In this document: positions 5,704 through 63,160 of the stretch, piece by piece | Layout of the letters: the number at the start of each line of letters is the position of its first letter | How positions within the stretch are numbered: position 1 is the first letter of the stretch | IMG/VR virus record: IMGVR_UViG_3300027714_002832 | Length of the DNA: 64,000 nucleotides | DNA from: a virus | Strand: one strand, 5' to 3' | The notes under the pieces: model-generated | The model's input: the letters and a program-made list of their open reading frames with translations, nothing else | What the model was told of the DNA's origin: nothing | Database searches by the model: none | Translations under genes and position numbers: made by a program

Positions 5704-5711
5704 ATAAGTAT

Positions 5712-6398: not shown

Positions 6399-6502
6399 TT
6401 CTATAACATATTAAACCATCTTATAACTAAGAACTCATGTATTGCTAAATATAGATATATGGGTTTTTTTATGCCTGTAACATAATAAGAGGAACACATA
6501 TC

Positions 6503-6847
6503 ATGTATACATATCGTGTTAAATTAGTAAGAGTAATAGACGGTGACACCATTGATGCAGAAATCGATCTAGGCTTCAATGTGGTGATGAGACAGCGAAT
6601 TAGATTGTACGGTATAGCGACACCAGCGACTCACACAAAAGATTTAGAAGAAAAAGAGCGTGGTCTAGCATCAAAGCAGCGCCTGACCGAACTATTACCA
6701 AAAGAGTTTATTGTTGAAACAATATTAAACAAGCGTGGAAAGATTGGTAGAATAATGGGCATCGTGTATGTAGAAGAATATGATACGTCTATCAATATCA
6801 ATGATGTAATGGTTGAAGAAGGTCACGCAATTAGGTATAATAAGTAG
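6503..6847 (+). CDS. staphylococcal-nuclease (SNase/thermonuclease)-like protein
   Basis: VIDGDTID...RIRLYGIATPA resembles SNase V(I)DGDT and DTPE blocks. Confidence 0.5.
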   Translation: MYTYRVKLVRVIDGDTIDAEIDLGFNVVMRQRIRLYGIATPATHTKDLEEKERGLASKQRLTELLPKEFIVETILNKRGKIGRIMGIVYVEEYDTSININDVMVEEGHAIRYNK

Positions 6848-6857
6848 AGGATAAATT

Positions 6858-8414: not shown

Positions 8415-8854
8415 AGCAAGACAACAGTAGTTATACAATAACAAATCCTGATCTATTTTTAACAAATGATGGGATTTCTGTATTAATCACGAGTACTAAC
8501 AAAGAATTCATTGACGAAGTAAAATTAATAGTAGAGCATCACATTGAACATAGTATTGTGTTTAATGTGCAGCCTTCTAGCACCACCGAAACAGGTGTTC
8601 CCTGGATGTGGTATGTGAGTCGTGCAGTTGACATTATGTTTGTTGATTTAGACACATGTGCTTGGGTAGACATTTGTACTGCATTGACAAAAGAACAGGA
8701 TGATAATCATGTTGTTGTGTTTTTTAGTGACAGGAACAAAAAACGCGATGCTATTAAATTGATAAATGCAACGAGTAAGTATATTATACTGAAAGATATT
8801 AAAGAGATCAGTGCATACATGGAAACACATGTTCAACTGTCTGCTCCTTTATGA
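8411..8854 (+). CDS. hypothetical protein
   Basis: 147-aa ORF, ATGA overlap. Confidence 0.45.
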   Translation: MKQDNSSYTITNPDLFLTNDGISVLITSTNKEFIDEVKLIVEHHIEHSIVFNVQPSSTTETGVPWMWYVSRAVDIMFVDLDTCAWVDICTALTKEQDDNHVVVFFSDRNKKRDAIKLINATSKYIILKDIKEISAYMETHVQLSAPL

Positions 8855-10080: not shown

Positions 10081-10576
10081 AAAACCAATGTTGATGTTTA
10101 ATCAATTCATAACATTTCGCGAAGTACGTGTCAATTTTGAAGACGGCGAAAGTAAAGTACTAAATACAGTAGAGGCATTATCTATCGCAGAAGGTAGAGG
10201 ACTGGATTTGATTGTTATCAATGAAATTGCAGTTCCACCAGTATGTAAGATTGCTGATAAAAATAAGTTTTTGTATGAACAGAAACAAAAACAAAAAGAC
10301 ACTGCAAAAAAGGCAAGAGCCAGTACAGTAGAACATAAAGAAATCCGTATGGGTTTGAATATCGAAGAAAATGATATTACTGTTAAATCTAATAAGATTA
10401 AAACATTATTGGAAAAGAATTGCAGAGTTACTATTACCGTGACCTTGAAGGGTCGTGAACGAAGTAAGCAACATATAGCACGTGAACTAATCCAATCTAT
10501 TGCAGATCGATTAGGTGTTGAGTTGGAATTATTCGGTGCAAGTGGTAATAGAGTTAGTGCGAAAATAAAAGGTTAA
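10070..10576 (+). CDS. infC: translation initiation factor IF-3 homologue
   Basis: EVRVNFEDGE..VLNTVEALSIAEGRGLDLIVINEIAVPPVCKIADKNKFLYEQ and C-domain KEIRMGLNIEENDI...TLKGRE colinear with bacterial IF3. Confidence 0.8.
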   Translation: MKNKKPMLMFNQFITFREVRVNFEDGESKVLNTVEALSIAEGRGLDLIVINEIAVPPVCKIADKNKFLYEQKQKQKDTAKKARASTVEHKEIRMGLNIEENDITVKSNKIKTLLEKNCRVTITVTLKGRERSKQHIARELIQSIADRLGVELELFGASGNRVSAKIKG

Positions 10577-10578
10577 GA

Positions 10579-10821
10579 ATGGCATATAATAGAAATGAGC
10601 GTCAAGGTTTGACGGTTGCAGTATACAATGATAACATCGAACAAGCGTTGCGTAAATTTAAGAAGAAGATGACCACAGATGGTAAACTTCAAGAAGTAAA
10701 GGATCGCGCAGAATTTACACCAAAATTTGAAAAGCGTAAAGCATCACAAGCAGCAGCAAAGGCACGATTGCGCAAGCAATTGTCACAAGAGAATAATGTT
10801 ACTAAAAAGCGTTTATTCTAA
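10579..10821 (+). CDS. rpsU: ribosomal protein S21 homologue
   Basis: 80 aa, basic; ALRKFKKKMTTDGKLQEVKDRAEFTPKFEKRKASQAAAKARLRK matches bS21 pattern. Confidence 0.7.
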   Translation: MAYNRNERQGLTVAVYNDNIEQALRKFKKKMTTDGKLQEVKDRAEFTPKFEKRKASQAAAKARLRKQLSQENNVTKKRLF

Positions 10822-10931: not shown

Positions 10932-11240
10932 ATGACACAATCATCAGCATCAACATCATCCGAACTAACACACACACGACTACGTGGCCCATCAAAGTAT
11001 AATGTTATCTTTTTAAATGATGACGCAACCTCTATGGAATTTGTTATTTCGGTACTAACTGCTATCTTTCATAAAGATGCAACAGAAGCAGCAGAAGTAG
11101 CAGTACACATTCATGAAAAAGGCAAGGCAATCGCTGGAACCTATCAGTATGAAGTAGCAGAACAGAAAGTAACTGAGACAGTATCTAATGCTCGTTCAGC
11201 AGGCTTTCCACTTTCATTAACGTTGGAAGAAGTTGAATAA
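10932..11240 (+). CDS. clpS: ClpS adaptor protein homologue
   Basis: YNVIFLNDDATSMEFVISVL...EAAEVAVHIHEKGKAIAGTYQYEVAEQKV matches ClpS core. Confidence 0.8.
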   Translation: MTQSSASTSSELTHTRLRGPSKYNVIFLNDDATSMEFVISVLTAIFHKDATEAAEVAVHIHEKGKAIAGTYQYEVAEQKVTETVSNARSAGFPLSLTLEEVE

Positions 11241-14987: not shown

Positions 14988-16052
14988 ATGAACGCAGTTA
15001 ACGCTTGGACAGAGTTTCAACCATTGAAGAAAGTAGTATTGGGTGCACCATTCCCAGAAACTGCATTTGATTGGCACGAAGATGAAGAGACACGAGACAC
15101 TATGCGACAAATCTTCCGTGAAACAGCCGAAGATATTGAAGTACTAGCACAACTATTAGAAGCACGTGGAATTGAAGTGGTACGTCCCAAGAACATCTTT
15201 ACAATCACTGGTGAAGAACAGATTCAATTACCGTGGGCTCATTGTGCGTTTCCGAACCATCCATTAATGCCGCGCGATACGTTGATGCCATATGGTCATT
15301 CAATTTTTGAATGCTTTACAGGCGGTGACAATCGTTACTTTGAAAACCTAGCATACTATGATCACGTAGTAGAATGGTTTAAACAAGGTGCTGATTGGAT
15401 TTCAATGCCTGGCTGCATGGTAGAAACTGGTAAAGGATATGATGAATACGTAGCAGAGCAGCGTGTACTGTATCATGCTGCAAATATGATCAAGTGTGGT
15501 GATACTATCTTATTCAGTCAACCATACGAAGGTGACAACAAGCGTGGACGTGGTACGAATTTGGGCAAGGAATGGATGCAAAGAGAAATCAAACAGCGTT
15601 ATCCTGATACTAAATTTATTGATATTCCAATTGGTGGTCACATAGATGGTAAGATTGCATTATTGAAGCCGGGTGTTCTTATGACGTGGAACAAAGCATG
15701 GGTCCCAGAAGAATTCAAGAATTGGACAATCATTGAAGTAGAAGATGATTTTGACATGCCAGCAGATTTTCAAAATACACGTAAGCGTAGATACTATAAA
15801 GAGTATGTACAGAAGTGGTTAAGTCATTGGGTAGGTTATGCAGACGAGTCTGTATTTGATGTTAATGTATTATCATTGGATGAAAAGACGGTAATCTGTA
15901 CAGGTAAAAACGATGCAGCATTTGCTGAAATGGAAGCAAACGGAATTGAACCAATTGTTTGGCGATTCCGTCATCAGTATTTTTGGGATGGTGGTATCCA
16001 TTGCTTGACTAGTGATATCGTACGTGAAGGTAATTGTGAGAATTATTTATGA
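14988..16052 (+). CDS. amidinotransferase / guanidino-group-modifying enzyme superfamily protein
   Basis: C-terminal GGIHCLTSDIVREG resembles the catalytic-Cys GGxHCxT motif of amidinotransferases/ADI/DDAH. Confidence 0.55.
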   Translation: MNAVNAWTEFQPLKKVVLGAPFPETAFDWHEDEETRDTMRQIFRETAEDIEVLAQLLEARGIEVVRPKNIFTITGEEQIQLPWAHCAFPNHPLMPRDTLMPYGHSIFECFTGGDNRYFENLAYYDHVVEWFKQGADWISMPGCMVETGKGYDEYVAEQRVLYHAANMIKCGDTILFSQPYEGDNKRGRGTNLGKEWMQREIKQRYPDTKFIDIPIGGHIDGKIALLKPGVLMTWNKAWVPEEFKNWTIIEVEDDFDMPADFQNTRKRRYYKEYVQKWLSHWVGYADESVFDVNVLSLDEKTVICTGKNDAAFAEMEANGIEPIVWRFRHQYFWDGGIHCLTSDIVREGNCENYL

Positions 16053-17083
16053 GTATGCTATGGCGTGATAATATACAAAGCCTACAAGTAGATGTTACTA
16101 GTTATTGTAATGCTAAGTGTGGTGGATGCGCTAGAAATGACGACGGTCATGAAACAAGACCGGGTCTTATTCTTGAAAACTTTGATGTTGATGTATGGAA
16201 TCGTATGGCAGAGCATGATACCAAAGATATTTTTATTAATGAACTGGTATTAAACGGGAATTGGGGTGACTCTATGATGCATCCTAAAATTAAAGATATG
16301 GTTACAACATTTGCAAAATTTCATCCAGAAGCGAGTTTATATATCCATACCAATGGCAGTATGCGCACGACCAAATTCTGGGCTTCTTTTGCCAAAGTTT
16401 GTCGTCAATTCTCAAATCATCGTGTAGTTTTTGCAGTAGACGGTCTAGAAGATACACATGCGATATATCGTCGTAATACCGACTTTCTTAAAATTATGGA
16501 GAATATTAAAGCATTCACCGATGCGAATGGACGAGCGAGTGTAACCATGACCCTATTTGAACACAATAAACATCAAGTAGAAGAAGTTAAAAAAATAGCA
16601 CAATCGCTTAATGCAGATTTTACCTTACGTTACAGTCATGGAGATGGACTAGAAGTAATTGCGCCTGGCGAAAATTATATGATATATGCATGTGATGAAT
16701 TGCCCGAAGAGGAGGTAGAAGTAGAGCATGATAATTATAGATTAAGTGATTTACCAAATTATATGGATAATCTAATTATATCAGATGCAATAGAACCTGT
16801 CGCATCAACATGTCCGTGGTTAGCAGATCGTCAAGTGCAAATTGATCCATGGGGTACGGTGTGGCCATGTTGTCATATTAGTAATCATGCAAATTCCTTT
16901 TCATCAGAGTATACTGGGATCGCCGCAACTGATGATAATTTCGATGAAGGTAAACTAGCAAATAACCTGAAGCATACGCCGTTATATGATATCCTTAGTA
17001 ATCGGTGGTATGCGGATGTGTTACCTGATGCGGTAAAACATGAAAAATGGCTAGTTTGTCGTGATTCATGCTTTAGTGATTAA
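16049..17083 (+). CDS. radical SAM enzyme with C-terminal SPASM/twitch-like motif
   Basis: CNAKCGGC (Cx3Cx2C); C-terminal CPW...GTVWPCCH and CRDSC; paralogue of ORF 1309-2334. Confidence 0.8.
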   Translation: MSMLWRDNIQSLQVDVTSYCNAKCGGCARNDDGHETRPGLILENFDVDVWNRMAEHDTKDIFINELVLNGNWGDSMMHPKIKDMVTTFAKFHPEASLYIHTNGSMRTTKFWASFAKVCRQFSNHRVVFAVDGLEDTHAIYRRNTDFLKIMENIKAFTDANGRASVTMTLFEHNKHQVEEVKKIAQSLNADFTLRYSHGDGLEVIAPGENYMIYACDELPEEEVEVEHDNYRLSDLPNYMDNLIISDAIEPVASTCPWLADRQVQIDPWGTVWPCCHISNHANSFSSEYTGIAATDDNFDEGKLANNLKHTPLYDILSNRWYADVLPDAVKHEKWLVCRDSCFSD

Positions 17084-32127: not shown

Positions 32128-33099
32128 ATGAAAATTATTGCAGGTAACAGTAACAAAAAAATGGCACTTGCCATTGCAGAAAGGTGCTTTGCGTCACTCG
32201 TATCCGCAGATATCAAAACATTTGCAGATGGTGAATCAAGTGTACAGTTTAACGAGAACATTCGTGGCGAAGATGTTTTCATCATTCAATCAACGTCTAC
32301 TCCTGTTAATGACAATCTTATGGAATTGTTGGTTATGATTGACGCTGCAAAACGTAGCAGTGCAACTCGCATTACCGCAGTAATGCCATACTTTGGATAT
32401 GCACGCCAAGATCGTAAGAGTGCATCCCGTACTCCCATCACAGCAAAACTAGTAGCAGACTTACTAACAACAGCGGGCGCAGACAGAATCCTTACAATGG
32501 ACTTACACGCAGGACAAATACAGGGATTCTTTGATATTCCAGTCGATGATCTAACATCCCGTATTGCGTTTGCTAAAGATATTAAGAAGCAATTCTTCAA
32601 AGAAGGTGCTGACGTAACCGAGATTGAAACTGTATTTGTAAGCCCAGATGCAGGCGGTACAGTTCGTGCACGTAAGTTTGCTGACATGTTTGGTGGTGAT
32701 ATTGCCATTGTAGACAAGCGCAGACCACGTGCTGGTGAAAGTGAAGTTATGGGATTAATTGGCGATGTCAAAGGACAACACGCTATTCTAGTAGACGACA
32801 TTATTGACTCAGGTGGTACATTATGTAATGCTGCTCAAGCAATCATGGATGCTGGTGCACTTAGTGTTAGGGCATATATTACACATGGTGTACTTAGTGG
32901 TACTGCTTGTCAAAAAGTTGAAAAGAGTGTACTCACTGAACTAGTAATCACTGACAGCATTGAATTTAATTGTCCAGCAGATCATACAAAAACTAGAACA
33001 GTAAGTGTAAGTCAAATGTTTGGTGAAGCAATTCGTCGTGTCACTAACGAAGAAAGTGTCAGTAGTTTATTCACCCAACTAGTAAGACCTATAGTATGA
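32128..33099 (+). CDS. prs: ribose-phosphate pyrophosphokinase (PRPP synthetase)
   Basis: N-terminal [37 protein letters not shown] loop [11 protein letters not shown]. Confidence 0.9.
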
Positions 33100-39916: not shown

Positions 39917-39970
39917 TTAAGATAAGTGGTCGACGATTCACAAAATTCGCAGTTACTAATGGAGATTAAA

Positions 39971-41185
39971 ATGTCGAATCCAACATATATGGATTATTCA
40001 TCAACGACCCCAGTAGATCCACAGGTCGCCAAAAAAATGGCAGATTGTTTAACAATGGAAGGCAACTTTGGCAATCCTGCATCACGTTCACATACGTACG
40101 GATGGGAAGCAGAAGCAGCCGTTGATAAAGCACGTAAACAAGTAGCAGATTTGATTGGAGCAGATACACGAGAGATTGTATGGACATCAGGCGCAACTGA
40201 ATCAAACAATCTAGCACTTAAAGGCATTGCTCAGTTTTATGCAAAACGTGGTAAGCATATTATTACGTTACGAACAGAACATAAAGCAATACTAGATACT
40301 TGTCGTCAACTAGAACGAGAAGGGTTTGAAGTAACTTACTTAGACCCAATGCCCAACGGTTTACTAGACATTGAAGTGTTTAAAAATACAATCAGAGAAG
40401 ACACCATTTTAGCATCATTTATGCATGTTAATAATGAGATTGGTGTTATACAAGACTTACACGCCATTGGTGATATCTGTAGAGAACATAAAGTATTCTT
40501 CCATGTTGACGCTGCTCAATCAGTAGGCAAAATGCCAATTGACTTAGCAACGCTCCCAGTAGATTTAATGAGTTTTTCCGCACATAAGATATACGGACCT
40601 AAAGGCATGGGTGCATTGTATGTATCACGTAAACCTAGAGTTCGTCTTGAAGCACAAATGCATGGTGGTGGACACGAACGCGGTATGCGATCTGGTACAT
40701 TAGCAACACATCAAATTGTTGGAATGGGTGAAGCATTTGCTATTGCACAAGAAATGATGGCAGAGGAAGAAGTTAGAACACGCGCACTCAGAGATAGGTT
40801 ATACGCGGGATTCTCAGATATGGAAGAAGTAGTAGTCAATGGTGATTTTGAACAGCGTATTGGCAGCAACTTAAATATCAGTTTCAATTACGTAGAGGGT
40901 GAATCTCTATTAATGGCAATCTCTAATATTGCAGTATCTTCTGGTTCTGCATGTACATCTGCAAGTCTTGAACCATCATACGTTCTTAGAGCGTTAGGAC
41001 TTAGTGACGAATTAGCACACAGTTCAATTCGATTTAGTGTTGGTCGTTATACAACAGAAAAAGATGTAGATGATGCAATTATTCTAGTACGACAGAAAGT
41101 AGAAAAATTAAGAGACTTATCACCATTATGGGACATGTACAAAGATGGTGTTGATTTAAGTACGGTACAATGGGCTGCTCACTAA
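39971..41185 (+). CDS. iscS: cysteine desulfurase IscS/NifS
   Basis: start set at [16 protein letters not shown] (RBS GGAGA); PLP Lys block [16 protein letters not shown]; active-site SSGSACTS. Confidence 0.9.
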
Positions 41186-51288: not shown

Positions 51289-52551
51289 TTAGTTATTGTC
51301 ATTGATTTGTCCTTTAAATTCTGGACATGATTCTACTAACGTACCACGTTGCAATTCATCCATCTTCAAATTATAATCAATAAATTCTTGCCAGTGTTCA
51401 GCATGTGTATTCCCAGCATTTAAATACTTAATCACATCGTCTACCTTAGGCCATGCTTTATGACTTTTTAAATTATACAATGCCAACGTCTTTAAATGAT
51501 GTGGCAATACTTGTATATTCATACTACGCGGATGGTTTAATATATTGAAATATAACTGATCATGTTCTAATCCACGTGATTCCGCAAACTCGATAACCTC
51601 GTGTAGTGCACATACATTCAATGCTTGTACCGTACAATGAATCTGAATATATACATTATCCAATTTAGATAATTCATCAAAATTCTTTTCTACTATATGC
51701 CAATGACTAGGGTAACGAATATATCTGTCACGCGCACCAATTGCATCAATTGAGCAATTTAATTGTACACGCTTGAAATGTGACCAATATTCGATCATCT
51801 TCGGTGGCACATTAGTTAGGTTGGTGTTGTACTTTAAACGAATGCCCGATGCAAGATCATTTTCAATACAATAGTCTAACAACTTATATTGACTAACTGC
51901 CAATGTAGGCTCACCACCAGTTAAATAAATTTCTTCAACCGTATGAGCAATTTCAGTGAATGTAATACCTGTCTTTTCCCAATCTGGCCATTCAGTCATG
52001 GTATTCATGAATTCTAATGTGTCTTCATCCAATTTCTTTGGTGGATCTAAATATGCTGCATCAACTACTTTATTCCAATCTTTAACCCACATGCTACTTG
52101 CCCACGGATTACACATGCGACATTTTAGGTTACATAAGTTACCCAAACGTAAGTCAACATATTTCACATCAACTGGAATTTCAACATCTATCTTCACATC
52201 TTCTTTCAGCCACTTTTCATTAAATCCTGCTCGCGCACTACGAATGCCAGCATCTTCTTCTCTGAAACAACGCGCACACATATCTGGTCGCTCACCATCG
52301 ATGAACTGTTTTCTGATAGTTGTATAGGTTGGGCTATTCCATACTTCATCTAAATCATGCTTGTAGATTTTATATGGCTTGCCATTCTCTTGTAATATTG
52401 TGTTCTCACCGGGCGTGCTATTACAGCATACTCGATAAGATCCCGCAGCATTAGTTGCTACGTGCATAAAGGGTAAAACACAGAACGTGTCACTTACTTT
52501 TTTTGTCATTTGTTTAAATCCATTTTGTATAATCTTTGCCATCACTATCAT
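51289..52551 (-). CDS. radical SAM enzyme with N-terminal twitch-like Cys motif
   Basis: N-term CVLPFMHVATNAAGSYRVCCNS ... CARCF then CNLKCRMC (Cx3Cx2C). Confidence 0.8.
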   Translation of the reverse strand: MIVMAKIIQNGFKQMTKKVSDTFCVLPFMHVATNAAGSYRVCCNSTPGENTILQENGKPYKIYKHDLDEVWNSPTYTTIRKQFIDGERPDMCARCFREEDAGIRSARAGFNEKWLKEDVKIDVEIPVDVKYVDLRLGNLCNLKCRMCNPWASSMWVKDWNKVVDAAYLDPPKKLDEDTLEFMNTMTEWPDWEKTGITFTEIAHTVEEIYLTGGEPTLAVSQYKLLDYCIENDLASGIRLKYNTNLTNVPPKMIEYWSHFKRVQLNCSIDAIGARDRYIRYPSHWHIVEKNFDELSKLDNVYIQIHCTVQALNVCALHEVIEFAESRGLEHDQLYFNILNHPRSMNIQVLPHHLKTLALYNLKSHKAWPKVDDVIKYLNAGNTHAEHWQEFIDYNLKMDELQRGTLVESCPEFKGQINDNN

Positions 52552-53446
52552 CTAGTATCATTACATGATCAATCAATTGTTGTTTATTATCTTGATCATC
52601 CAATGCACCCGGAGCCATGTATGCGGGACTAATCAAATCACTCGCTCTATTGAAGTGAATATCGTGACTTGTCGCCCAATCATTCACTTCGTGAATGTTA
52701 TTAATATTTAGTACACTTGGTAAACACGTAATACATATACTCGTATTATCAGGTGAACTCTTGTGTATGTCAATGATATTATTACTTACTTGTTCCCAGT
52801 TTGCTCCTCGTCTAAGGTATTCAAAACGCTCACCTATGGCATCTACACTTGCAACTATTATAACACGTTTAAACGATTCGAACAAGGGATAATATGCATT
52901 AATATCTATTGTTCCATTAGTAATGAATTGTAATTCAATCGTAGATGAAACGTCTGCATCGATCAGATATTTAATTATCTTCTTTACTTGTGGTATCATG
53001 AATGGTTCACCACCTGTAAATTTAAGAATCTTTGCAAAATGCAATTGTGGGTATATCTGCTCAATATCTTTGTGCCAACCTGTATTTGCTTTGCGCTTAC
53101 CAGTTTTTACTGCCCACGAACTTGAACTATAACTATCACATGAGACGCACGTGAGATTACACGTGTTGTTAATCTTTAAGTCCCATTGCTCTGTGCCAAT
53201 GCTATCTGCTAGTACATCATTCATATACATTCGATAACTCTTACCATTTGATTCTTCATCTTGTTGGCACTCTATGCATTCAGGCAACCAACCTCGCAAT
53301 GACTCAACATAGTATTTGTTGTGCAACGATTCCCAATCATCGGTAATTGCAACACCAGATGATGCCGCATTCCAAGCACAGCATGGTCTAACTTCGCCTG
53401 TTACGCCTATCGTTACTGCATGTTTAAACGCCAAGCATTTTGGCAT
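52514..53446 (-). CDS. radical SAM enzyme with N-terminal twitch-like Cys motif
   Basis: N-term CLAFKHAVTIGVTGEVRPCCAW ... CIEC then CNLTCVSC. Confidence 0.8.
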   Translation of the reverse strand: MPKCLAFKHAVTIGVTGEVRPCCAWNAASSGVAITDDWESLHNKYYVESLRGWLPECIECQQDEESNGKSYRMYMNDVLADSIGTEQWDLKINNTCNLTCVSCDSYSSSSWAVKTGKRKANTGWHKDIEQIYPQLHFAKILKFTGGEPFMIPQVKKIIKYLIDADVSSTIELQFITNGTIDINAYYPLFESFKRVIIVASVDAIGERFEYLRRGANWEQVSNNIIDIHKSSPDNTSICITCLPSVLNINNIHEVNDWATSHDIHFNRASDLISPAYMAPGALDDQDNKQQLIDHVMILDDSDGKDYTKWI

Positions 53447-54179
53447 AGCCGCGATTCACCTGTTGTTTAAATTCATCACTAGGACCACCATCAAAGATCA
53501 TATGTATCCTTGGTTCTTCACTTTTATTCCATACAGAATGCTTATATCCTGTATTCAATTTCATCACTGAACCTGCTTCAAATGGAACAATACCCATACC
53601 TTCAAATACGAATTCGCATCCATCTGGATTGTTTAATGCTACATTAGTTGCACCTACTCCAACTGGATTAGGTCTATCGTTGTGAATGCCCAACCAACCA
53701 TCTGGTAACAGTGCCATGAACCTTACACGAGCAAACTGGTTGTACAACATTTCATCTTGCATCCATTGTACTGTTTTAGGGCAAAATTTAGCAATATCAG
53801 TCCAGTCACTATGGGTTTCTTCATAATCATCTGGTAAGTTATAATCTTCTGCACAATTAGTATGTACACTGCTTATTCCATGAATCGACAAACTCAACCA
53901 CCCCGAACTACAAGGACGGTGTGCAGTAAAGCATGACGTATATAACAAATGATTTGCTTCTTCAAACAAATCCTTGTGTGGTACATTAATTTCTGGTATC
54001 GATATATATGGAAAACGGGTATTGTCCATGATGTAATCAACATCGTGCTCACTTTCTTCTAAAAAATTCCCTGCATCTAATATTTTAAAATCAGGTTTAA
54101 TAATTCTATTTTCTTCATGCCATATAATTGATTCATCATCAATTTCTTCCCTATCTAAAGGTGATCCTTCAAACCACAT
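53424..54179 (-). CDS. aspartyl/asparaginyl beta-hydroxylase-like cupin oxygenase (candidate)
   Basis: WLGIHNDRPNP (HxD) and YKHSVWN (distal His) in a beta-rich C-terminal half. Confidence 0.45.
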   Translation of the reverse strand: MWFEGSPLDREEIDDESIIWHEENRIIKPDFKILDAGNFLEESEHDVDYIMDNTRFPYISIPEINVPHKDLFEEANHLLYTSCFTAHRPCSSGWLSLSIHGISSVHTNCAEDYNLPDDYEETHSDWTDIAKFCPKTVQWMQDEMLYNQFARVRFMALLPDGWLGIHNDRPNPVGVGATNVALNNPDGCEFVFEGMGIVPFEAGSVMKLNTGYKHSVWNKSEEPRIHMIFDGGPSDEFKQQVNRGYAKMLGV

Positions 54180-54189
54180 AATTTATCTC

Positions 54190-55749
54190 CTATTGTTCAA
54201 ATGTTAATGTTTCATTATTGGTTGTACTTATAATAGCCCTTGATGGACATGTTAAGTCGTTATCGTTTATATCAGTGCCCGAAAACCAACAATCATCATG
54301 CAATTCATTTAATTTAGTTATTAAACTAATGAAACTCAATTCCATTGCAAACGGTTTACTAAGCATCTTTGGCACAATATAACTATAGATATTAGATGTC
54401 CACATCAATGTTCTTTTATTTTCTACTGCTTCAAATAATTTATCATGTCCATATATTAAATCACATTCAATTACTTCCCAGTTGCTCTGTCTGATTCTAT
54501 CCCATACTGATAACCAATTAGTATCTCCATCAAATTGCTGTATTACGTTAGGCCATCTCTCAACAGTCAAGTCTCTTAAATTTCCATTTGCATCTGGATG
54601 CTGTTCAATCCATGCATCGACAAACTCAGGATAGTTTATACCATTCCATTGTTCTAGCATATCTCGTTTAAATTTACAACTCAATGGATCAAAATCATAT
54701 AACACAAATTTCGTGTCTTTTGTAAAACCATACTTGTATGCATAGTAGAATAATTTAAAGCCCGCAGTGGCACCGACATATTGATCAAATACCGTTCCTT
54801 CAATTTGTTCTGCAATACCAGGCTGACTAGATTCTGTATTTACAAAATATATAGGACTATCTGGTGCGAACATCTCTCTTATCATTCGATTTGCTTGAAA
54901 TGTTAGTTTATCACTGTCAAACGGTAAACCTTGTATAGCCTTCTCAAATTCAATTGAACCAACATGCGGCTTCATCGTGGCTAAACAATTCATAAAATCT
55001 GCACTCAATCCTGGGACAATTAGTTCTTGTCGCAATGACCATGTCAATAACGGATTGCACAATTTATGATGGTATTGTTCATTAAATTCTTCGTGTGTTA
55101 TCCACGGATTCCATGTAGCATGTTTGATATTTAATCGTGCAGCGCCTAGTTTTACAATACCAAATAAACTATCCTCAAAATCTTCAACTATTCCTTGTTT
55201 TCTAGTAACCCAATTGTCACTTGGCTTTTCATGTCGTGTACCTTGACGAGAATACCGATCTGCGGGATCTTGATTGTATAATACATCAGCGGGATCTTGT
55301 GCACCTTGCTCATACCACGTATCTAAATTAATCAGTATGATGTTTCTTTCAAAATGAGAATATCTTTCATCATCGGTTTGTAATATATTTCCTGCAACTA
55401 TCCATTTAGTGATATCAAATTCTTCATTAATACGATTTATTTCATCAAGTAATTTTAAGTTAACATCATCAGATGCTGACCAAGTGCCGTCAAACCACAT
55501 ACATACATAACGATATCCTAATTTGCGCATAGCGATCATCCAACTAATTTCGGATTGTCCTACAATGTTAACTATGCCTCCACGAAGATGATTATTATGT
55601 TCTACCTCTGCTATTTCACGTAACTTTTGCTTTAATATAGGTGTGTCACTTAATTCAATACTATCAGTGTTATTTGAATTGAATGCGTGAACTATTGGCC
55701 ATGAATTTTCTCCATGATAATAATTCCACAGACTCTGTCCTTTCTTCAT
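54190..55749 (-). CDS. large hypothetical protein (possible Rossmann/methyltransferase-like segment)
   Basis: 519 aa; Gly-rich YVGATAGFKLFYYAYKYG followed by acidic LYDFDPL, weak. Confidence 0.5.
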   Translation of the reverse strand: MKKGQSLWNYYHGENSWPIVHAFNSNNTDSIELSDTPILKQKLREIAEVEHNNHLRGGIVNIVGQSEISWMIAMRKLGYRYVCMWFDGTWSASDDVNLKLLDEINRINEEFDITKWIVAGNILQTDDERYSHFERNIILINLDTWYEQGAQDPADVLYNQDPADRYSRQGTRHEKPSDNWVTRKQGIVEDFEDSLFGIVKLGAARLNIKHATWNPWITHEEFNEQYHHKLCNPLLTWSLRQELIVPGLSADFMNCLATMKPHVGSIEFEKAIQGLPFDSDKLTFQANRMIREMFAPDSPIYFVNTESSQPGIAEQIEGTVFDQYVGATAGFKLFYYAYKYGFTKDTKFVLYDFDPLSCKFKRDMLEQWNGINYPEFVDAWIEQHPDANGNLRDLTVERWPNVIQQFDGDTNWLSVWDRIRQSNWEVIECDLIYGHDKLFEAVENKRTLMWTSNIYSYIVPKMLSKPFAMELSFISLITKLNELHDDCWFSGTDINDNDLTCPSRAIISTTNNETLTFEQ

Positions 55750-55758
55750 TTTTCGTCC

Positions 55759-56985
55759 TTATATATCATTATTGATGTCTATTAAAAAATCAGTAAGTGG
55801 CATATCAAGATATTGTTCTATCATCTCACTTAATTTAATCTTAGGATTGTATCTATTTTCTAAATCACGTGTGTACTTACGCATCTTAGTATATTGTATA
55901 TAATCTCGTTGATTATTTTCCATATAAGTAGCAAATGTATCCATCTCTGGATGTTCTTTTTCATGCTTTCGTAATTTATTAATAATAGCCGATCTATAAG
56001 GCTCAGGCCATATCGCTGGGCTTAGTATCTTTGGTGTATGTAATATGTTAGCAGTAATGAATGTCAATTCAATGTCACTCTGCTTCCAGTATTCATAAAA
56101 TTCTGGCATCTGAAATATATTATGTGCTTGTATAGTAATACCCAATGCTAAGTCTATATGCTCTATGTCATTCAATACACTCAGATTAGATTCTACTGTA
56201 CTCCAATCACCACCTTCACGAATGTAATCATAAACATCATTGACACCATCAAGTGATACTTTGATATTAACATGCTTGAATTGACTCCAAATTTCTAGCA
56301 AATTATATTTTTTAAATGTTAGATGACTCAGATTAGTAGCATATCGCAATTTGATCGTAGATCGTAGATGCTCTGGTATCGATTCAAGTAAGTCGTAATG
56401 CTCTTGATTAATGATAGGTTCGCCACCAGTGAATTGTAATACTTTAACTGTATCCCAGAACCCATCCCATTTGCCTATGCTATCAAACAACGTAGTTGGT
56501 CGTAGGAGACGTGTTTCGTGATGCTCTGTACCCATATACTTCTCAATGATGTCTAAGTCCTGTACGCGCTTGTACGAACTATGTGTACTACACATAATAC
56601 ATTTCAAATTACAGAAGTTAGAAACCTTCAACTCTATCCACAATGGTGGATTATCTACAGAGTAATCATCATTGAGTTTGATCAAGTCTTTATAATTATC
56701 CCAATCATCGTCAAACCATTGCTGTCTATTTGATACAACACCACTTGCTTCATTATGCCAACATACATCACACTCTGATGGTATCTCATTGCTAGTGAGT
56801 GCCCTACGAAGTTCTTTGTAGTTGTCATTATTCCATGTGTCTTCAATAGCAGCACCCGGCTCATTGAAAATCTTAGTTTGTGCTTCACAGCAAGGTACTA
56901 TATCGCCGCCCGCTGAACCGTACGTATGCATGAATGGTATCATACAAAATGATGTTGTTTTGGCTAGTTCATTAATATCTTTCAT
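55759..56985 (-). CDS. radical SAM enzyme with N-terminal twitch-like Cys motif
   Basis: N-term CMIPFMHTYGSAGGDIVPCCEA ... CDVC then CNLKCIMC. Confidence 0.8.
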   Translation of the reverse strand: MKDINELAKTTSFCMIPFMHTYGSAGGDIVPCCEAQTKIFNEPGAAIEDTWNNDNYKELRRALTSNEIPSECDVCWHNEASGVVSNRQQWFDDDWDNYKDLIKLNDDYSVDNPPLWIELKVSNFCNLKCIMCSTHSSYKRVQDLDIIEKYMGTEHHETRLLRPTTLFDSIGKWDGFWDTVKVLQFTGGEPIINQEHYDLLESIPEHLRSTIKLRYATNLSHLTFKKYNLLEIWSQFKHVNIKVSLDGVNDVYDYIREGGDWSTVESNLSVLNDIEHIDLALGITIQAHNIFQMPEFYEYWKQSDIELTFITANILHTPKILSPAIWPEPYRSAIINKLRKHEKEHPEMDTFATYMENNQRDYIQYTKMRKYTRDLENRYNPKIKLSEMIEQYLDMPLTDFLIDINNDI

Positions 56986-58105
56986 TTAATAATTTCTTAT
57001 ATCCTTGTATATATTCTTCTGCATCATTATTACGTAAATCAAACAATTCGTACATTTGATCTAAATAAATTTTACTATTATCTTCTGCGTTATTTGTTTT
57101 ACACAATGAAATTAATAATGTATATGCTTTCTTTAATTTCCAGTGACAGTCTTTATATTGCTCTTCTACTATCAATCTCAAATTATTCTTGAATGTATCT
57201 GTCTGATGTGCGATACTCAACCAGTCTGGCTCATGTATAGTTTGCAACATTACCTGCACACCTATCTCAAATCTTGCCCATCTCATTAGATCTATTAACA
57301 CTGGTGCATTTAATACACCAACTGTGCAAGCGACAAATACTTCTACCTTGTCGTATTTAGTTCCCAATTCTGTCCATTGCTTCAGTACAGATTCAATAGC
57401 AGGGAATTTGGATGGGTGACGTAATATATCGTTTAATTCGCCAACTGCATCTATACTATTCGTAATTCGCAAGTTATTGAATTCTAATAGATAATCTAAG
57501 TTCATCTTCGCTGGCCAGTATGTGCAATTCGTAAATATCTCAATATCGATCTGAGGTGCAATACCACTATCTACCAATCGTTTAATGAATCGTAAAAACT
57601 GCTTATGCATGAACGGCTCACCACCTGTCACTTTCATATATTTCAAATGAGATAGTTGATCCATGGATAGTGCATCTAAATCATATTCTCTATTCTTTGC
57701 AAAATGTTCTAATACTTCAACCATCACTAAATCAATCGCTAGTGCGTCTTTATCCCATGTATGACTATACTCAGGTCCGCAACCAACACATGCAAGATTA
57801 CATAGATTGCCCACTGTAATCTCTAGATATTCTAATTGGATTGAATCTGTGAAATCATCAAAGAATTCGTCTGCTTCTGTTCGCATACTAGTAAGACCAG
57901 TATCTTCATCGGCTTTGCATTTCCAGCAACCCTCATGCCATTCGTTCCTTAACATCGTCTCGCGAATATCTTTAAACACATACTTGTTATCATCATCAGA
58001 TAAGTAACGATCATGAAATTTACAACATGGTGTAGCGGGAGTACCGTTTGCAAGCATTGCTGCTTTGAACGGATATGCACAAGCGTTACTCGGCAAATTT
58101 GCCAT
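56972..58105 (-). CDS. radical SAM enzyme with N-terminal twitch-like Cys motif
   Basis: N-term CAYPFKAAMLANGTPATPCCKF ... CWKC then CNLACVGC. Confidence 0.8.
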   Translation of the reverse strand: MANLPSNACAYPFKAAMLANGTPATPCCKFHDRYLSDDDNKYVFKDIRETMLRNEWHEGCWKCKADEDTGLTSMRTEADEFFDDFTDSIQLEYLEITVGNLCNLACVGCGPEYSHTWDKDALAIDLVMVEVLEHFAKNREYDLDALSMDQLSHLKYMKVTGGEPFMHKQFLRFIKRLVDSGIAPQIDIEIFTNCTYWPAKMNLDYLLEFNNLRITNSIDAVGELNDILRHPSKFPAIESVLKQWTELGTKYDKVEVFVACTVGVLNAPVLIDLMRWARFEIGVQVMLQTIHEPDWLSIAHQTDTFKNNLRLIVEEQYKDCHWKLKKAYTLLISLCKTNNAEDNSKIYLDQMYELFDLRNNDAEEYIQGYKKLLNERY

Positions 58106-59003
58106 TATTTTTATACCTCTTTAGTGCTTTCGCTAAGTTGATGCGATTGTATGCGCGATCACGATGGAACATATCCCATTCTGGTGTATCAGGTGCTTGG
58201 GCAATATGTATCGTATTAGTCTCTTGCAATCCATAATGTTCACATACAATTTTATGTGCTTCTCTATATTTGTTAGGCATAGTATCTGGGCTGAACTTTT
58301 TCATTAACGCATTAGACAATGCTACATTCAAATGAATACCGTGATTCCATTCTGTCTGCACTCGCATACCACAACGCTCTTCATCTAAACGACTGAACAC
58401 AATACCAGCACGCCAGTTACCACCACTTAATCCTTTACCAGTGCTGAATGCAACCATCTTAATACAATCATGTGACAAATCAACATCAATATCAAAACAA
58501 GTTCCAAACCATGCACAATCTACCAGAATAGGAATATTCTTTGCTGTACACTCTTCAATCAACCAATCCCATCGCTCGTGCTTGCGTCCGTTACCACTGA
58601 ATGGAATACTAACGATAACCGCATCACCTACGGATAACCCAGTATCGTCAATGCTATCTGACCAATTCATTTCTGGTCCCAACCATACATCACGGTTATA
58701 CGGATATTCACCACGGAACACCTTTAAGTTCTGTCCAGTAGCGATGCACCAATACTGCCACCATTCTAATGCTTGTGTAGTACCTAAACTAACATAACGA
58801 TCAGGATATGTATCTAACCCAGTAAAGTTATTTAATTTGCTGCTTTGTATCCATTTGGGATATAATTCTAAGAATTCTGCTGGGGCTGTACCAACTCCTG
58901 CTAAATTCATATTTGGCAATACTTCATCTTGTATATAGTCAATAAATGGTTGATTCCAAATACTGTTGCCTGTCTTACCAAAATCGGGGTTGTTACTCAT
59001 CAT
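58086..59003 (-). CDS. truncated PLP-dependent aminotransferase-like protein
   Basis: AFSTGKGLSGGNWRAGIVFS resembles fold-type-I aminotransferase SxSKxxGxxGxRxG block; only 305 aa. Confidence 0.4.
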   Translation of the reverse strand: MMSNNPDFGKTGNSIWNQPFIDYIQDEVLPNMNLAGVGTAPAEFLELYPKWIQSSKLNNFTGLDTYPDRYVSLGTTQALEWWQYWCIATGQNLKVFRGEYPYNRDVWLGPEMNWSDSIDDTGLSVGDAVIVSIPFSGNGRKHERWDWLIEECTAKNIPILVDCAWFGTCFDIDVDLSHDCIKMVAFSTGKGLSGGNWRAGIVFSRLDEERCGMRVQTEWNHGIHLNVALSNALMKKFSPDTMPNKYREAHKIVCEHYGLQETNTIHIAQAPDTPEWDMFHRDRAYNRINLAKALKRYKNNGKFAE

Positions 59004-59263
59004 GTATTCCTTGTTAGTCCTAGTGCTATTGCATTATCAAATGTAATAGGATGTGCGCTTACAACGAGCATAAAGAAATCTCTCGCTTCATCGTAATCAT
59101 TAAATATAGATTCAAATACTATTTCACTTGTTGTACCACTAAGTGTAACACTATATTTGTCTGTAATTGTTTCATCCGAATATGTGAGTATAACTAAATC
59201 GTTATTAGCACCCATATTGTCTTTGAAGTCTTCTGTCGTTTTTATATATTGTCGTTTTATCAT
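59000..59263 (-). CDS. hypothetical small protein
   Basis: 87-aa ORF, ATGA overlap. Confidence 0.4.
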   Translation of the reverse strand: MIKRQYIKTTEDFKDNMGANNDLVILTYSDETITDKYSVTLSGTTSEIVFESIFNDYDEARDFFMLVVSAHPITFDNAIALGLTRNT

Positions 59264-59514
59264 TATAAATATGCCATCTTTAATAAAAATATTTCTTCAT
59301 CTGGTAGGTCAACTAGAGTAACCCATTCATTGAATGTATAATTAATTCCATCAATCCACCATGCAGCGTGACCATCAGGCCATATAACCGCAGGTCCAAT
59401 CTCATTATGCCATATACACTCATCGTCGTATATGTAGCCGCAATATTCTCTATGATGTACGATCACGATACCATCGGTTGTTACTACAAATGTGCAAGTT
59501 GCACTATCTGACAT
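59263..59514 (-). CDS. hypothetical small protein, WHxxDGPA/FKMA family
   Basis: WHNEIGPAVIWPDGHAAWWIDGINYTFNEW and C-term DEEIFLLKMAYL; paralogue of 31473-31865. Confidence 0.45.
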   Translation of the reverse strand: MSDSATCTFVVTTDGIVIVHHREYCGYIYDDECIWHNEIGPAVIWPDGHAAWWIDGINYTFNEWVTLVDLPDEEIFLLKMAYL

Positions 59515-60754
59515 AACTCTCGATTTCTGGTATATACTGCAATGTGTCTGTTTTTCGTAATCTATCTAAATCGTCAGTGTACCTTAGAAACCAATTCCAT
59601 TGCTTATCAGATTCTTGATCATCTTCGTTTGAAAACATTAACCCATTACGAATGGATTCAATACCTGTCTGATATCCACCTTCATCTGAGTTTGCACTAG
59701 TAAGTGGCCACATTTCTAAATTAGGGATATGCTTTATTTTATCATACGCCAATGCTTTCAACTCTTCTGGCATATTTCCTATATTCAAATAGCCAGGATG
59801 AACTACCACGTTACTCATCGAAATACTTGCACGATGCGCATGATGGGTAGCAAACCATTCCCAGACTTTATCTAAATTAAATATATTGGTAATCATTACC
59901 GTAACAGCAAACACTACCTCTACATTTGGGATATCGTAGAATTTTTCTATGTTCTCGTTCAATTGATCCCATGTGTAACTAGGACCGCCACGAATAATAC
60001 TATATAATTCATCAGTTGCTTCTACACTAATTAATAATTCTACATGCTTAAAGTGACTGAATAATTCTCTAAATTCTTCTTTGAATACGGTTGCATTTGT
60101 ACTGATGTCTAATGATACGCTACTTGCAATACCATTGTCTACAAACCATTGCAATACTGATAAACAGATTTCATCATACAACGGCTCACCACCACGCAGT
60201 GCCACCCATTGCAGATTGCGAAAATACTCTGGATTCTTAAATAGATTATCCATGAAGTCTATACTTGCACCATGATAACCTATTGGCTGTTTACTCCAAT
60301 ATTCTGGCTTTTCTCTATTAAGAGATTTACCATCTTTAGTCCAGCCTGTACTTACGAACGGATCACAATGAATACATGCTAGATTACATTTATTACTAAG
60401 AGTAAAATCAAGATACCTAATATCAGGAACAGAATCTACTGTAAGATCTTTACTCGCAACCTTTGTTTCATGATCAATTCTATCCCAGAAATATAAACGA
60501 CGACTGCGCCCAACTTTCTCTTTCTTCACGCAACCCTGACATGATTCTGGAATCTCACGCTTACGATGTGATTCTCTCAATTCAGTGTATGCATCTCCCT
60601 CTAGTATTTCACGCAATGATTGCTTACCAATATTACCTAATTTACCTTTATAGATAATGTCTGGGATGACGTTACCACCCCATTTAACAGTTAATGCGTG
60701 CCAAGGTGCTAAACAGGTAGGTAGATCTTTTCTATTTACGAATGTGTTTTTCAT
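59504..60754 (-). CDS. radical SAM enzyme with N-terminal Cys-rich region
   Basis: N-term CLAPWH...CQGC then CNLACIHC (Cx3Cx2C). Confidence 0.8.
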   Translation of the reverse strand: MKNTFVNRKDLPTCLAPWHALTVKWGGNVIPDIIYKGKLGNIGKQSLREILEGDAYTELRESHRKREIPESCQGCVKKEKVGRSRRLYFWDRIDHETKVASKDLTVDSVPDIRYLDFTLSNKCNLACIHCDPFVSTGWTKDGKSLNREKPEYWSKQPIGYHGASIDFMDNLFKNPEYFRNLQWVALRGGEPLYDEICLSVLQWFVDNGIASSVSLDISTNATVFKEEFRELFSHFKHVELLISVEATDELYSIIRGGPSYTWDQLNENIEKFYDIPNVEVVFAVTVMITNIFNLDKVWEWFATHHAHRASISMSNVVVHPGYLNIGNMPEELKALAYDKIKHIPNLEMWPLTSANSDEGGYQTGIESIRNGLMFSNEDDQESDKQWNWFLRYTDDLDRLRKTDTLQYIPEIESYVR

Positions 60755-61521: not shown

Positions 61522-61752
61522 TTAAAACAGTTCTCTTAATAATTTCTCTTCTGCTTTCTTCTTTGTACGACGATTTACGTCTGCTGCTGCAATTTCTCGC
61601 TGCATGTAATCTTCAAACATATTTTTCAGTTCATTCTCTTCTAAATTCACAATCTGTGATTTAATTGAAGATAACACTTTTGTTACACTCATATCTGTAC
61701 TTTTATTAATCTCATCTTGGATGATATTTGTTACTACGTCTGCATTAATCAT
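61522..61752 (-). CDS. hypothetical small protein
   Basis: 76 aa, first gene downstream of candidate minus-strand promoter. Confidence 0.4.
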   Translation of the reverse strand: MINADVVTNIIQDEINKSTDMSVTKVLSSIKSQIVNLEENELKNMFEDYMQREIAAADVNRRTKKKAEEKLLRELF

Positions 61753-61807: not shown

Positions 61808-61838
61808 ATTATATACTATGTTTATATGTTCTGTCAAG
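61808..61838 (-). promoter_or_regulatory. candidate sigma70-like promoter for minus-strand island
   Basis: minus-strand TTGACA (61838-61833), 16-18 nt, TATATAAT (about 61815-61808). Confidence 0.4.
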
Positions 61839-61842
61839 GTAT

Positions 61843-62844
61843 TTATTTACGAATTATTACTTCAAATGGCGTGATACCATCTCTCCAGGTCCCAGCAAAA
61901 TCTTTTATAATTACATCACAATTATTAGATTCCATAAATTTAGTTACACCATCTAGATCTGCTACTACTTCGGATAGTGTAATTAAATAACAAGGATCTG
62001 CATTCTTATCTGCTGCTAAGAACATCATATGTTCTATACCATTGTATCGCCAGTTATATCCTATACGGGTATCTTCATACTGCACAAATCCATCATGTCG
62101 TATAGAATCCCATAAGTAGAATCTGATATCTGCGACATCTGCTGACATAATATCATTCATTGTAGTACCTACTACATTCATGTTATCATCTACAACTACT
62201 GCACACCCATCAAACACTGTAGTGCCAGACTGTGTCAATATCTTAAACTGATCTGCACATACGTCAACCTTATGGATGAACTCGCCAGATACACTCCTAA
62301 ATTCTACCACTTCGCCACGAACAATAATATTCAATCGTACACCGTCCATCATCTGTTGTACCACGCAAGGAAACGAGATGTTTTTCATATTCTCTTCCGT
62401 GTATTCACTAGCACATTGCACTGGATAACCTTTTATTAAATTATTCCATACAGTGTTGATAGTATCTGCATCAAGTCCCCAATCGCATTCGTTTTTCATG
62501 ATTGCGACAAATATTGGCACTTCTTGATCGTTCATATGTGTCACTGCTAGATTACATGCGAATTTTGCTTCTGATGGTGTGTATTTGTTATTTAAAATTT
62601 CTTCAAATAAATGCATGAATCTTGGGATTCCCATGCCATGCATTTTGCCAGCGTTCAGTGGTGTCCAATCTTTCATATCAAATTGAAGCATTGGATCATA
62701 TGCAAAGGTAACTAACATTTTGATCAATGAGTTTTCTTCATATTTTTCTAATATTAATAATTTTTCTTCTTGAGTTGTCGCTAATGTCAATGCATCTGCG
62801 ACTCTACGTATTGTTGCTATTCTATTCATAACAGTATTTAGCAT
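61843..62844 (-). CDS. ATP-dependent DNA ligase, T4 gp30 homologue (motif-I Lys replaced by Met)
   Basis: N-term MLNTVMNRIATIRRVADA...KLLILEKYEENSLIKML parallels T4 Lig start; FPCVVQQMMDGVRL at the KxDG position; motif III VFDGCAVV; motif V DVIIKDFAGTWRDG. Confidence 0.7.
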   Translation of the reverse strand: MLNTVMNRIATIRRVADALTLATTQEEKLLILEKYEENSLIKMLVTFAYDPMLQFDMKDWTPLNAGKMHGMGIPRFMHLFEEILNNKYTPSEAKFACNLAVTHMNDQEVPIFVAIMKNECDWGLDADTINTVWNNLIKGYPVQCASEYTEENMKNISFPCVVQQMMDGVRLNIIVRGEVVEFRSVSGEFIHKVDVCADQFKILTQSGTTVFDGCAVVVDDNMNVVGTTMNDIMSADVADIRFYLWDSIRHDGFVQYEDTRIGYNWRYNGIEHMMFLAADKNADPCYLITLSEVVADLDGVTKFMESNNCDVIIKDFAGTWRDGITPFEVIIRK

Positions 62845-62881: not shown

Positions 62882-63160
62882 TTGAAATATTATATTTTGA
62901 TTGACCCACACAAACCAGACTACTGTAAATTGGGTATCACGAAAGATCCAGAACAACGCATAAAGGCATACCGAACGGCTGCGCCAGATTGTTACTTCAA
63001 GAAAATATATGACATCCCCGACATTATACATGAGCGTACAATACTAAAACTATTGAAAGAATCATTCAAAGTTAATAGAGAGTATGTACATTGTAACCCT
63101 ATCATCGTACAGAATATAATAGAAGGTTATTTTACCGATGTTGATATAGCATACACTTAA
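62882..63160 (+). CDS. GIY-YIG / T5orf172-like small protein (TTG start)
   Basis: YYILIDPHKPDYCKLGITKDPEQRIKAYRT resembles GIY...YIG...R core; RBS AGGAG 10 nt upstream of TTG. Confidence 0.4.
   Translation: MKYYILIDPHKPDYCKLGITKDPEQRIKAYRTAAPDCYFKKIYDIPDIIHERTILKLLKESFKVNREYVHCNPIIVQNIIEGYFTDVDIAYT

Follow-up and report, generated by a model that had tools for sequence, protein, structure and literature searches.

We describe here a phage gene that has kept most of the body of a T4-type DNA ligase while appearing to have lost the means to ligate. The gene is a minus-strand open reading frame at 61843..62844 of a 64,000-nucleotide stretch of viral DNA (IMG/VR record IMGVR_UViG_3300027714_002832; this whole stretch is referred to as the window), and it is a genuine homologue of the T4 DNA ligase gene. 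It belongs to a family carried by uncultured, mostly marine large phages, and the reading that we favor, at a probability of about 0.6, is that the family descends from a T4-type ligase, is catalytically dead, and has a non-catalytic role for which purifying selection maintains it in these phages. The narrower statement, that the protein cannot ligate and owes its maintenance to some other role, we put forward with high confidence. The features on which the argument draws are as follows.

61843..62844, minus strand: ligase-derived coding sequence, 333 residues plus stop codon (open reading frame list, ATG start, homology to T4 ligase)
62440..62844, minus strand: alpha-helical N-terminal domain, residues 1-135, a homologue of the DNA-binding domain of T4 ligase (phmmer to 5wfy and 6dt1, hhalign, residue table)
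61846..62439, minus strand: nucleotidyltransferase-like domain, residues 136-333 (hhalign to T4 residues 133-367; AF2, Foldseek)
62335..62358, minus strand: motif I remnant QQMMDGVR, residues 163-170 (three alignments)
62194..62217, minus strand: motif III remnant VFDGCAVV, residues 210-217, with Asp212 and Gly213 kept
62107..62112, minus strand: motif IIIa Trp245-Asp246, invariant among 73 family proteins
62026..62067, minus strand: family-specific, near-invariant segment RIGYNWRYNGIEHM, residues 260-273 (family alignment, AF2)
61903..61920, minus strand: motif IV remnant CDVIIK, residues 309-314, with K314 kept and the equivalent of T4 E344 lost
61849..61863, minus strand: motif V remnant EVIIR, residues 328-332, aligned with T4 LYKFK and containing no lysines

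The relationship to T4 gp30-type ligases, which a preliminary description had proposed from the letters of this DNA, is recovered by sequence, profile and structure comparisons. A phmmer search of all PDB sequences with the 333-residue protein returns T4 ligase only, namely 6dt1, matched over residues 31-195 (E 1.8e-13), and 5wfy, which is the T4 DNA-binding domain by itself (E 4e-4), and the protein matches PHROG 114, ‘ATP-dependent DNA ligase’, with an E value of 3.5e-31. Alignment of the family profile to a canonical-ligase profile by hhalign extends over 322 columns (probability 100%, E 4.3e-55), and within it the N-terminal domain spans T4 residues 1-129. The AF2 model has a mean pLDDT of 89.5; Foldseek places 6dt1 as its top PDB chain (E 1.3e-23), and comparison with predicted full-length phage ligases gives TM scores of up to 0.80. 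Both the nucleotidyltransferase (adenylation) domain fold and the T4-type N-terminal DNA-binding-domain fold are therefore present, yet the family escapes the ligase models of Pfam and NCBIfam, and its proteins are named ‘hypothetical protein’ by JGI (four clusters).

Motif I, which in gp30-type ligases is a KxDG sequence with an adenylylated lysine, lacks that lysine. The QQMMDGVR segment (residues 163-170) is paired with T4 QLKADGAR (157-164) by phmmer, MAFFT and hhalign alike, and the agreement of the three alignments identifies Met165 as the equivalent of the adenylated T4 Lys159, as had been described. The two ATG codons responsible are indeed present, but at 62347-62352 rather than at 62346-62351 as first reported, with the Met165 codon occupying 62350-62352 and the second ATG 62347-62349. 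The lysines nearest to Met165 are K154 and K192, so that realignment supplies no lysine to motif I, and the earlier concern that one might be slid in from a neighboring position can be set aside. Alignment with gp30 homologues, which had been recommended as a check, shows that the loss is a property of the family. Among 73 distinct family proteins the Lys159 position is occupied by Ile (25), Met (16), Leu (11), Val (10), Arg (3), or by Cys, Tyr or Phe, and never by Lys (0/73), whereas Lys is present in 18/18 canonical relatives. Lysines flanking this position are sporadic among the 73 sequences, the motif I Asp (T4 D161) is variable, and Q163, G168 and R170 are invariant, save for two divergent members in which the R170 position is occupied by His.

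The departures extend well beyond the nucleophile. Our comparison set 19 representatives of the family beside 18 canonical relatives, with the catalytic, adenine/ribose and DNA-contacting roles of residues taken from the description of the T4 ligase-DNA structure (PMC6212786). Six residues involved in catalysis or in phosphate or metal binding (T4 K159, D161, E217, E344, K365 and K367) are present in 18/18 canonical relatives, and none of the six is retained in the family. VFDGCAVV is motif III, as had been recognized and as hhalign confirms, but the ribose- and metal-binding Glu within it (T4 E217) is Cys in the window protein and either His or Cys in most members. In motif IV the metal-binding Glu (T4 E344; PMC6212786) is replaced by Cys or Ser or is variable across the family, and the Lys-x-Lys of motif V is missing, with Ile330 at the position of T4 Lys365 (Ile, Val or Leu in the family) and Arg332 at that of T4 Lys367, a variable position. 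We note that the sequence DVIIKDFAGTWRDG, originally labeled motif V, pairs with T4 EGIILKNIDGLWENA and is motif IV; motif V itself, LYKFK in T4, pairs with EVIIR.

The adenine and ribose contacts present a different picture, as the equivalents of T4 Q157, R164, D215, W282, I347 and K349 are all retained in the family. These include Trp245, whose T4 equivalent Trp282 stacks on the adenine, and K314, the equivalent of the T4 K349 that contacts adenine N1 (PMC6212786). There are 41 conserved positions in the canonical set, and 17 survive in the family; the adenine/ribose contacts among those 41 are kept at 5/5, for which the hypergeometric chance is p about 0.008. The DNA contacts show the opposite pattern: R79, T82, G116, R182, R254 and N258 are each conserved in at least 17/18 canonical relatives, and 0/6 are retained in the family. 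Helix alpha11, which contacts the nick and carries Arg254 and Asn258, is deleted altogether. In the window protein DNA-contacting positions carry D59 (for T4 K49), N86 (R79), E92 (A85), D125 (S118) and D127 (S120), and in the family such changes recur, with K49 replaced by Asp, Asn or Glu in 19/19 representatives, A85 by Glu in 18/19, S118 by Glu, Asp or Thr, and S120 by Asp or Glu, while the positions of R79 and R182 are variable. At the position of T4 K18 the family has an invariant lysine, K28. The median net charge of the DNA-binding domain is -2.5 in the family versus +3.5 in the canonical relatives, and that of the nucleotidyltransferase domain is -9.5 versus +2; the corresponding values for the window protein are -6 and -14, and its overall net charge is about -20.

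Colinearity with T4 ligase had been noted in the preliminary description, and this holds up to T4 residue 367 of 487, where it stops; what had escaped notice is that the whole C-terminal OB-fold domain, with motif VI, is missing. The 333-residue protein terminates at the point at which a true ligase would continue into its OB domain, and this is not a peculiarity of one contig, as 76/76 complete family open reading frames are 316-337 residues long and the single shorter sequence is cut by the end of its contig. The domain does not appear to be supplied from nearby. Using three OB domains as tblastn queries we found no match in the window or in the 77 flanking family loci other than an intact ligase, P0037, and 1.19 Mb of family-locus flanks contain no OB-like or LigA-like sequence except the P0037 ligase in its own loci; the number of loci with an OB domain less than 10 kb from the family gene is 0/77. 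With the lysine, the motif residues, the helix that contacts the nick and the OB domain (motif VI included) all gone, neither formation of ligase-AMP, nor transfer of AMP to DNA, nor nick sealing would be possible by the known mechanism. For the same reason a Met-to-Lys revertant would probably not regain activity, since the residues for all of the ligation steps are missing and not just the nucleophile.

The family is nonetheless well maintained. A 99%-identical protein, P0001, is recorded on 18 contigs, with 24 carrying contigs read in 43 collection blocks; a search of 5.8 billion proteins yielded 28 cluster representatives with 37-99% identity, all of 323-339 residues, and a further 69 loci (contigs) in IMG/VR carry the gene. 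Across this 37-99% range of identity, and on more than 70 contigs, the frame is intact and the length steady at 316-337 residues, with some deep members (P0030, P0032 and P0034) having additional internal deletions. Nei-Gojobori estimates of dN/dS for 452 pairs have a median of 0.25, and fall to 0.06-0.2 in the least diverged pairs, indicating that the gene is under purifying selection. A disrupted catalytic site on a ligase fold maintained by selection is what defines the ligase-derived viral pseudoenzymes, and it is the pseudo-ligase option of the preliminary description that these data bear out, given the concurrent loss of D161, E217, E344, K365, K367, R182, alpha11 and the OB domain. No family member was found in 185,579 bacterial and archaeal species representative genomes, and the family therefore appears to be restricted to phage contigs. 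Megablast and tblastn searches of 50,697 phage records were likewise without a family member, their only matches being canonical ligases of about 24% identity. The full genome of Pelagibacter phage HTVC008M, which is only distantly related to the window, is without a family protein, a T4-type ligase or a LigA-type ligase.

The origin of the family is indicated by P0037. In a profile search of 1.84 billion representatives the family members score at E <=1e-57, and after a clear gap P0037 is the first sequence to follow. It is a 446-residue ligase of an uncultured phage, with canonical KLDG, DGELL, EGIILK and IKIK motifs and an OB domain (Pfam DNA_ligase_A_M and DNA_ligase_OB_2), and it clusters with the lysine-less proteins in 200/200 bootstrap neighbor-joining trees, while the lysine-less family is itself monophyletic in 187/200. 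P0037 and most of the family genes are embedded in the same block, in which an IMPDH-like gene and small open reading frames, including a YjiS-like one, are accompanied by the ligase slot, and this is followed by convergent SPASM/radical-SAM and Lipase_3 genes. The shared block makes the dead form a positional orthologue of an active ligase, and as a related phage has an intact ligase in the same slot, the pseudo-ligase is the product of degeneration in place. Close relatives of P0037 are absent from IMG/VR, and a visual comparison of the best 80 of 380 canonical-ligase loci with the 69 family loci revealed no contigs in common. A 326-residue open reading frame beside the intact ligase in locus L082 was considered as a tandem paralogue and rejected, its sequence being unrelated.

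A second lysine-less and OB-less protein, P0039, has 307 residues, is at the same locus on another contig, and bears on the number of losses. It adjoins P0037 in a neighbor-joining tree built from BLOSUM distances, while bootstraps with Kimura distances support a single loss in 141/200 and placement beside P0037 in 59/200. P0039 may thus represent the same loss or an independent one.

The invariant residues of the family number 47, and it has also gained features. The segment at residues 260-273, RIGYNWRYNG[IL]EHM, shares just Y263 and R266 with canonical ligases, and its center is the sole poorly predicted internal loop of the AF2 model. A second invariant motif, GKxxGMGIxKFMH, has been gained in the helical domain.

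We propose a scheme in which an ancestral intact phage ligase degenerated in place to yield a truncated, lysine-less and acidified pseudo-ligase. With the adenine- and ribose-contacting residues kept and the phosphate-binding lysines replaced by hydrophobic residues, its pocket, as judged from the alignment, could hold an adenine ligand non-covalently; with the DNA contacts lost or acidic and a charge of about -20, the protein probably no longer encircles DNA and would contact protein or ligand instead, for which the RIGYNWRYNG loop is a candidate interface. Nick sealing would then be left to the host ligase or to another phage ligase not seen here. The combination of a kept adenosine pocket, lost DNA contacts, acidification and a new loop favors a binder of a ligand or partner over a DNA clamp. 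That an adenine nucleoside or nucleotide is still bound in the pocket, without a covalent link, is a tentative suggestion, to which we give somewhat less than even odds, as the retained residues (Q, R, D, W and K) also lie in the fold core and may be conserved for stability, and as the substitution of His for R170 in two divergent members counts against a kept pocket. A more specific version makes the protein a non-covalent sink or sensor of an adenine compound, for instance an adenosine whose 5' substituent is uncharged (5'-deoxyadenosine, methylthioadenosine and SAM/SAH are examples). This version is rather improbable, but the hydrophobic or variable nature of the three phosphate-contacting lysine positions and the replacement of the 2'-OH-binding Glu by His or Cys would suit such a ligand. 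A sink or sensor of this type might instead take a nucleotide-derived immune signal as its ligand.

Other explanations of the data must be weighed against this scheme. One of them, raised in the preliminary description, is that a single T-to-A miscall in sequencing or assembly has obscured an AAG codon, and the one-base difference between ATG and AAG makes this simple to envisage. However, six independently assembled contigs from different samples, which differ from the window at seven other nucleotides, have the same CAA CAG ATG ATG GAC GGT codons, and with Lys absent at this position from all 73 family proteins an error is refuted. Truncation and loss of catalytic residues, together with the extra deletions in P0030, P0032 and P0034, are also what would be expected of a pseudogene in decay, left over from a ligase gene that is being lost. 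We regard this as highly improbable, since the frame and length are preserved throughout the family, the dN/dS values of 0.06-0.25 are nowhere near 1, the relatives do not show frequent frameshifts or stop codons, and a new invariant motif has been gained. Nor is it at all likely that the protein is an active ligase that employs a different nucleophile, as had been suggested, for example the invariant K314 or H272, or that is completed by an OB domain and motif VI acting in trans. That the nucleotide-pocket residues are strongly conserved, as are several His and Lys residues, is compatible with that idea, but the absence of D161, E217, E344, K365, K367, R182, alpha11 and motif VI affects all three steps of the reaction, and no locus of the 77 offers an OB domain within 10 kb. 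We know of no member of the covalent nucleotidyltransferase superfamily with a nucleophile other than lysine.

A non-catalytic role of a different kind, in which the protein is a DNA-associated adaptor of the replisome that binds DNA, nicked or duplex, or a replisome protein and either recruits the host NAD+-dependent ligase or tethers some other factor, is unlikely but deserves more serious consideration. The gene is a positional orthologue of a replicative-type ligase, the gene for a family B DNA polymerase is ~6 kb away and that for an exonuclease is close by, the fold of the DNA-binding domain is retained with K28 invariant, and no other ligase is seen in the ~84 kb that was read, the genome being at least 157 kb long. 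There are also precedents in the poxvirus A20 protein (10.1101/2022.11.22.517515) and in stand-alone ligase DNA-binding domains (PMC7824862). Against this, the conserved DNA contacts are lost or reversed in charge, alpha11 is deleted, the net charge is about -20, and the protein contains no clamp-binding motif like the FSDLFEF at the C-terminus of the polymerase. We therefore prefer the reading of a catalytically dead ligase descendant that has been retained for binding a ligand or partner.

The closest known structures are those of T4 Dnl (6dt1), the Prochlorococcus marinus ligase (6rar) and the Rhizobium phage P10VF ligase (9fzx), and P0037, in the same syntenic position, is the nearest sequence among intact ligases. 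The family is homologous to the T4 gp30-type ligases in both the DNA-binding and nucleotidyltransferase domains, being colinear with T4 residues 1-367, but it differs from them in having no Lys nucleophile, D161, E217, E344, motif V lysines, R182 or alpha11, no OB domain or motif VI, an acidic rather than basic character, and the new RIGYNWRYNG and GKxxGMGIxKFMH motifs. Among proteins with a similar history, the poxvirus A20 protein (OPG148) is an inactivated ligase derivative that is a replication processivity factor, bridging the polymerase and the processivity subunit, and its ligase origin was recognized only through structure prediction (10.1101/2022.11.22.517515). Both are viral ligase-derived proteins with a disrupted catalytic site that have been kept for non-enzymatic roles. 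However, A20 descends from a ligase of the NAD+-dependent kind and can no longer be recognized as one by sequence, whereas the phage family comes from an ATP-dependent T4-type ligase, is still recognizable as such, and is thus an analogue of A20 rather than a homologue; A20, a binder of the viral DNA polymerase and UDG, also differs in having known partners, E9 and D4. In the ligase-less jumbo phages of subgroup 2.1, a stand-alone ligase DNA-binding domain has been proposed to recruit the host ligase (PMC7824862). As in those proteins (Iyer et al. 2021), a non-catalytic piece of an ATP-dependent ligase has been kept, but the family is not composed of a DNA-binding domain only, as it has an extra 198-residue nucleotidyltransferase-like domain, apparently dead. 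A tblastn search with DNA-binding-domain residues 1-143 returned Enterobacter phage ligases only and no link to the stand-alone domains of cyanophages or jumbo phages.

Ligase-derived pseudoenzymes are almost undescribed in phages, with poxvirus A20 being the one well-known viral case; we found no earlier phage pseudoenzyme derived from an ATP-dependent T4-type ligase in the literature, and this is apparently the first. The evolutionary path can be traced, with an intact ligase in one phage and a truncated, conserved derivative at the same locus of its relatives, so that the family offers a tractable model for the repurposing of a core replication enzyme and should be of interest to specialists in ligases and in phage replication. 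There is also a consequence for annotation, in that similarity-based labels such as the ‘DNA ligase’ of PHROG 114 would wrongly credit abundant marine phages with a ligase. If these phages encode no other ligase, the joining of their Okazaki fragments depends on that of the host, and if the adenosine pocket does bind a ligand, the nucleotidyltransferase fold would have a non-catalytic use that is new to it.

The source phage is an uncultured large phage with a genome of at least 157 kb, about 84 kb of which was read. Its family B DNA polymerase, encoded ~6 kb past the end of the window, is 44-49% identical to the polymerases of Atu_ph07-, Phosso- and 121Q-type jumbo phages, and it also encodes ClpP, ClpX, ClpS, IF3, ribosomal protein S21, a clamp loader and an IscS-like desulfurase. 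When queried with T4 ligase, E. coli LigA and the three OB domains, the window and the 10 kb past either end yielded no other ligase, and the same queries revealed no second ligase in the 77 family loci (1.19 Mb) besides P0037. We also note that there are at least seven radical-SAM genes in the 64-kb window, an observation of some interest beside the idea of a SAM-related ligand. Directly downstream of the pseudo-ligase gene there is a perfect sigma-70 consensus, TTGACA-18-TATAAT (61837..61808, minus strand), and its position between the gene and the radical-SAM cluster suggests that the cluster is a separate transcription unit. An operon linking the two was considered, and co-transcription is not supported. 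The radical-SAM/SPASM neighbor also flanks the intact P0037 ligase, and the linkage is thus not specific to the dead form.

Within the family of lysine-less, OB-less ligase-derived proteins, conservation is highest in RIGYNWRYNGIEHM, at residues 260-273 of the ligase-like protein (window 62026-62067); this segment encloses residues 262-264, the sole internal stretch of the AlphaFold2 (AF2) model with a pLDDT below 50. The overlap of strong conservation with low model confidence suggests that this segment is a flexible loop that would become ordered upon binding of a partner or ligand.

A second ligase derivative without the lysine and without the OB domain is the 307-residue P0039 (3259-4182 of locus L084), in which motif I reads QMRPRGPR and motif III reads DGC. 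It is 40% identical to P0037, the intact ligase at 5568-6908 of locus L082, and a DUF3307 gene comes next after each of them. Either P0039 split off early within the dead clade, or its loss was independent.

Upstream of the ligase-like gene, and divergent from it across a 37-nt gap, lies:

62882-63160, plus strand, 92-residue T5orf172 (GIY-YIG-like) ORF

This ORF was seen only at loci nearly identical to the window's own and may be a mobile insertion; at most other family loci the family gene is preceded by small same-strand ORFs, one of them YjiS-like. At the other end, a 12/12 match to the sigma-70 consensus (TTGACA, 18-nt spacer, TATAAT; 61808-61837, minus strand) directly follows the stop codon of the ligase-like gene and lies 5' of a 76-residue ORF (61522-61752), the first gene of the radical-SAM cluster. 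Five radical-SAM/SPASM genes make up this minus-strand cluster (51289-60754) and two further ones are on the plus strand:

59504-60754, minus, radical-SAM/SPASM, cluster
56972-58105, minus, radical-SAM/SPASM, cluster
55759-56985, minus, radical-SAM/SPASM, cluster
54190-55749, minus, 519-residue protein without known function, within the cluster
53424-54179, minus, Asp/Asn beta-hydroxylase-like, within the cluster
52514-53446, minus, radical-SAM/SPASM, cluster
51289-52551, minus, radical-SAM/SPASM, cluster
1309-2334, plus, radical-SAM/SPASM, outside the cluster
16049-17083, plus, radical-SAM/SPASM, outside the cluster

The density of such genes in the window is unusually high, and their pathway could be one of peptide or nucleotide modification. 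The window also encodes:

39926-41185, plus, IscS-like cysteine desulfurase (67% identity to 'iscS' of Acinetobacter phage MD-2021a contigs)
32128-33099, plus, PRPP-synthetase-like (PHROG 619, E 7e-50)

We note an Fe-S biosynthesis gene at 5586-5909 of locus L085, just outside the window start; together with the desulfurase it is consistent with the phage supporting its many Fe-S radical-SAM enzymes. The PRPP-synthetase-like gene, which also weakly matches nicotinamide phosphoribosyltransferase, could belong to a pathway that salvages or reconstitutes nucleotides or NAD+.

Proteostasis and translation genes form a further block:

4131-4745, plus, ClpP
8851-10080, plus, ClpX
10070-10576, plus, IF3
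10579-10821, plus, ribosomal protein S21
10932-11240, plus, ClpS

An HSP20 gene is added to this block in related contigs, and the block is likewise found with the ligase-like gene in the distant relatives L004 and L084.
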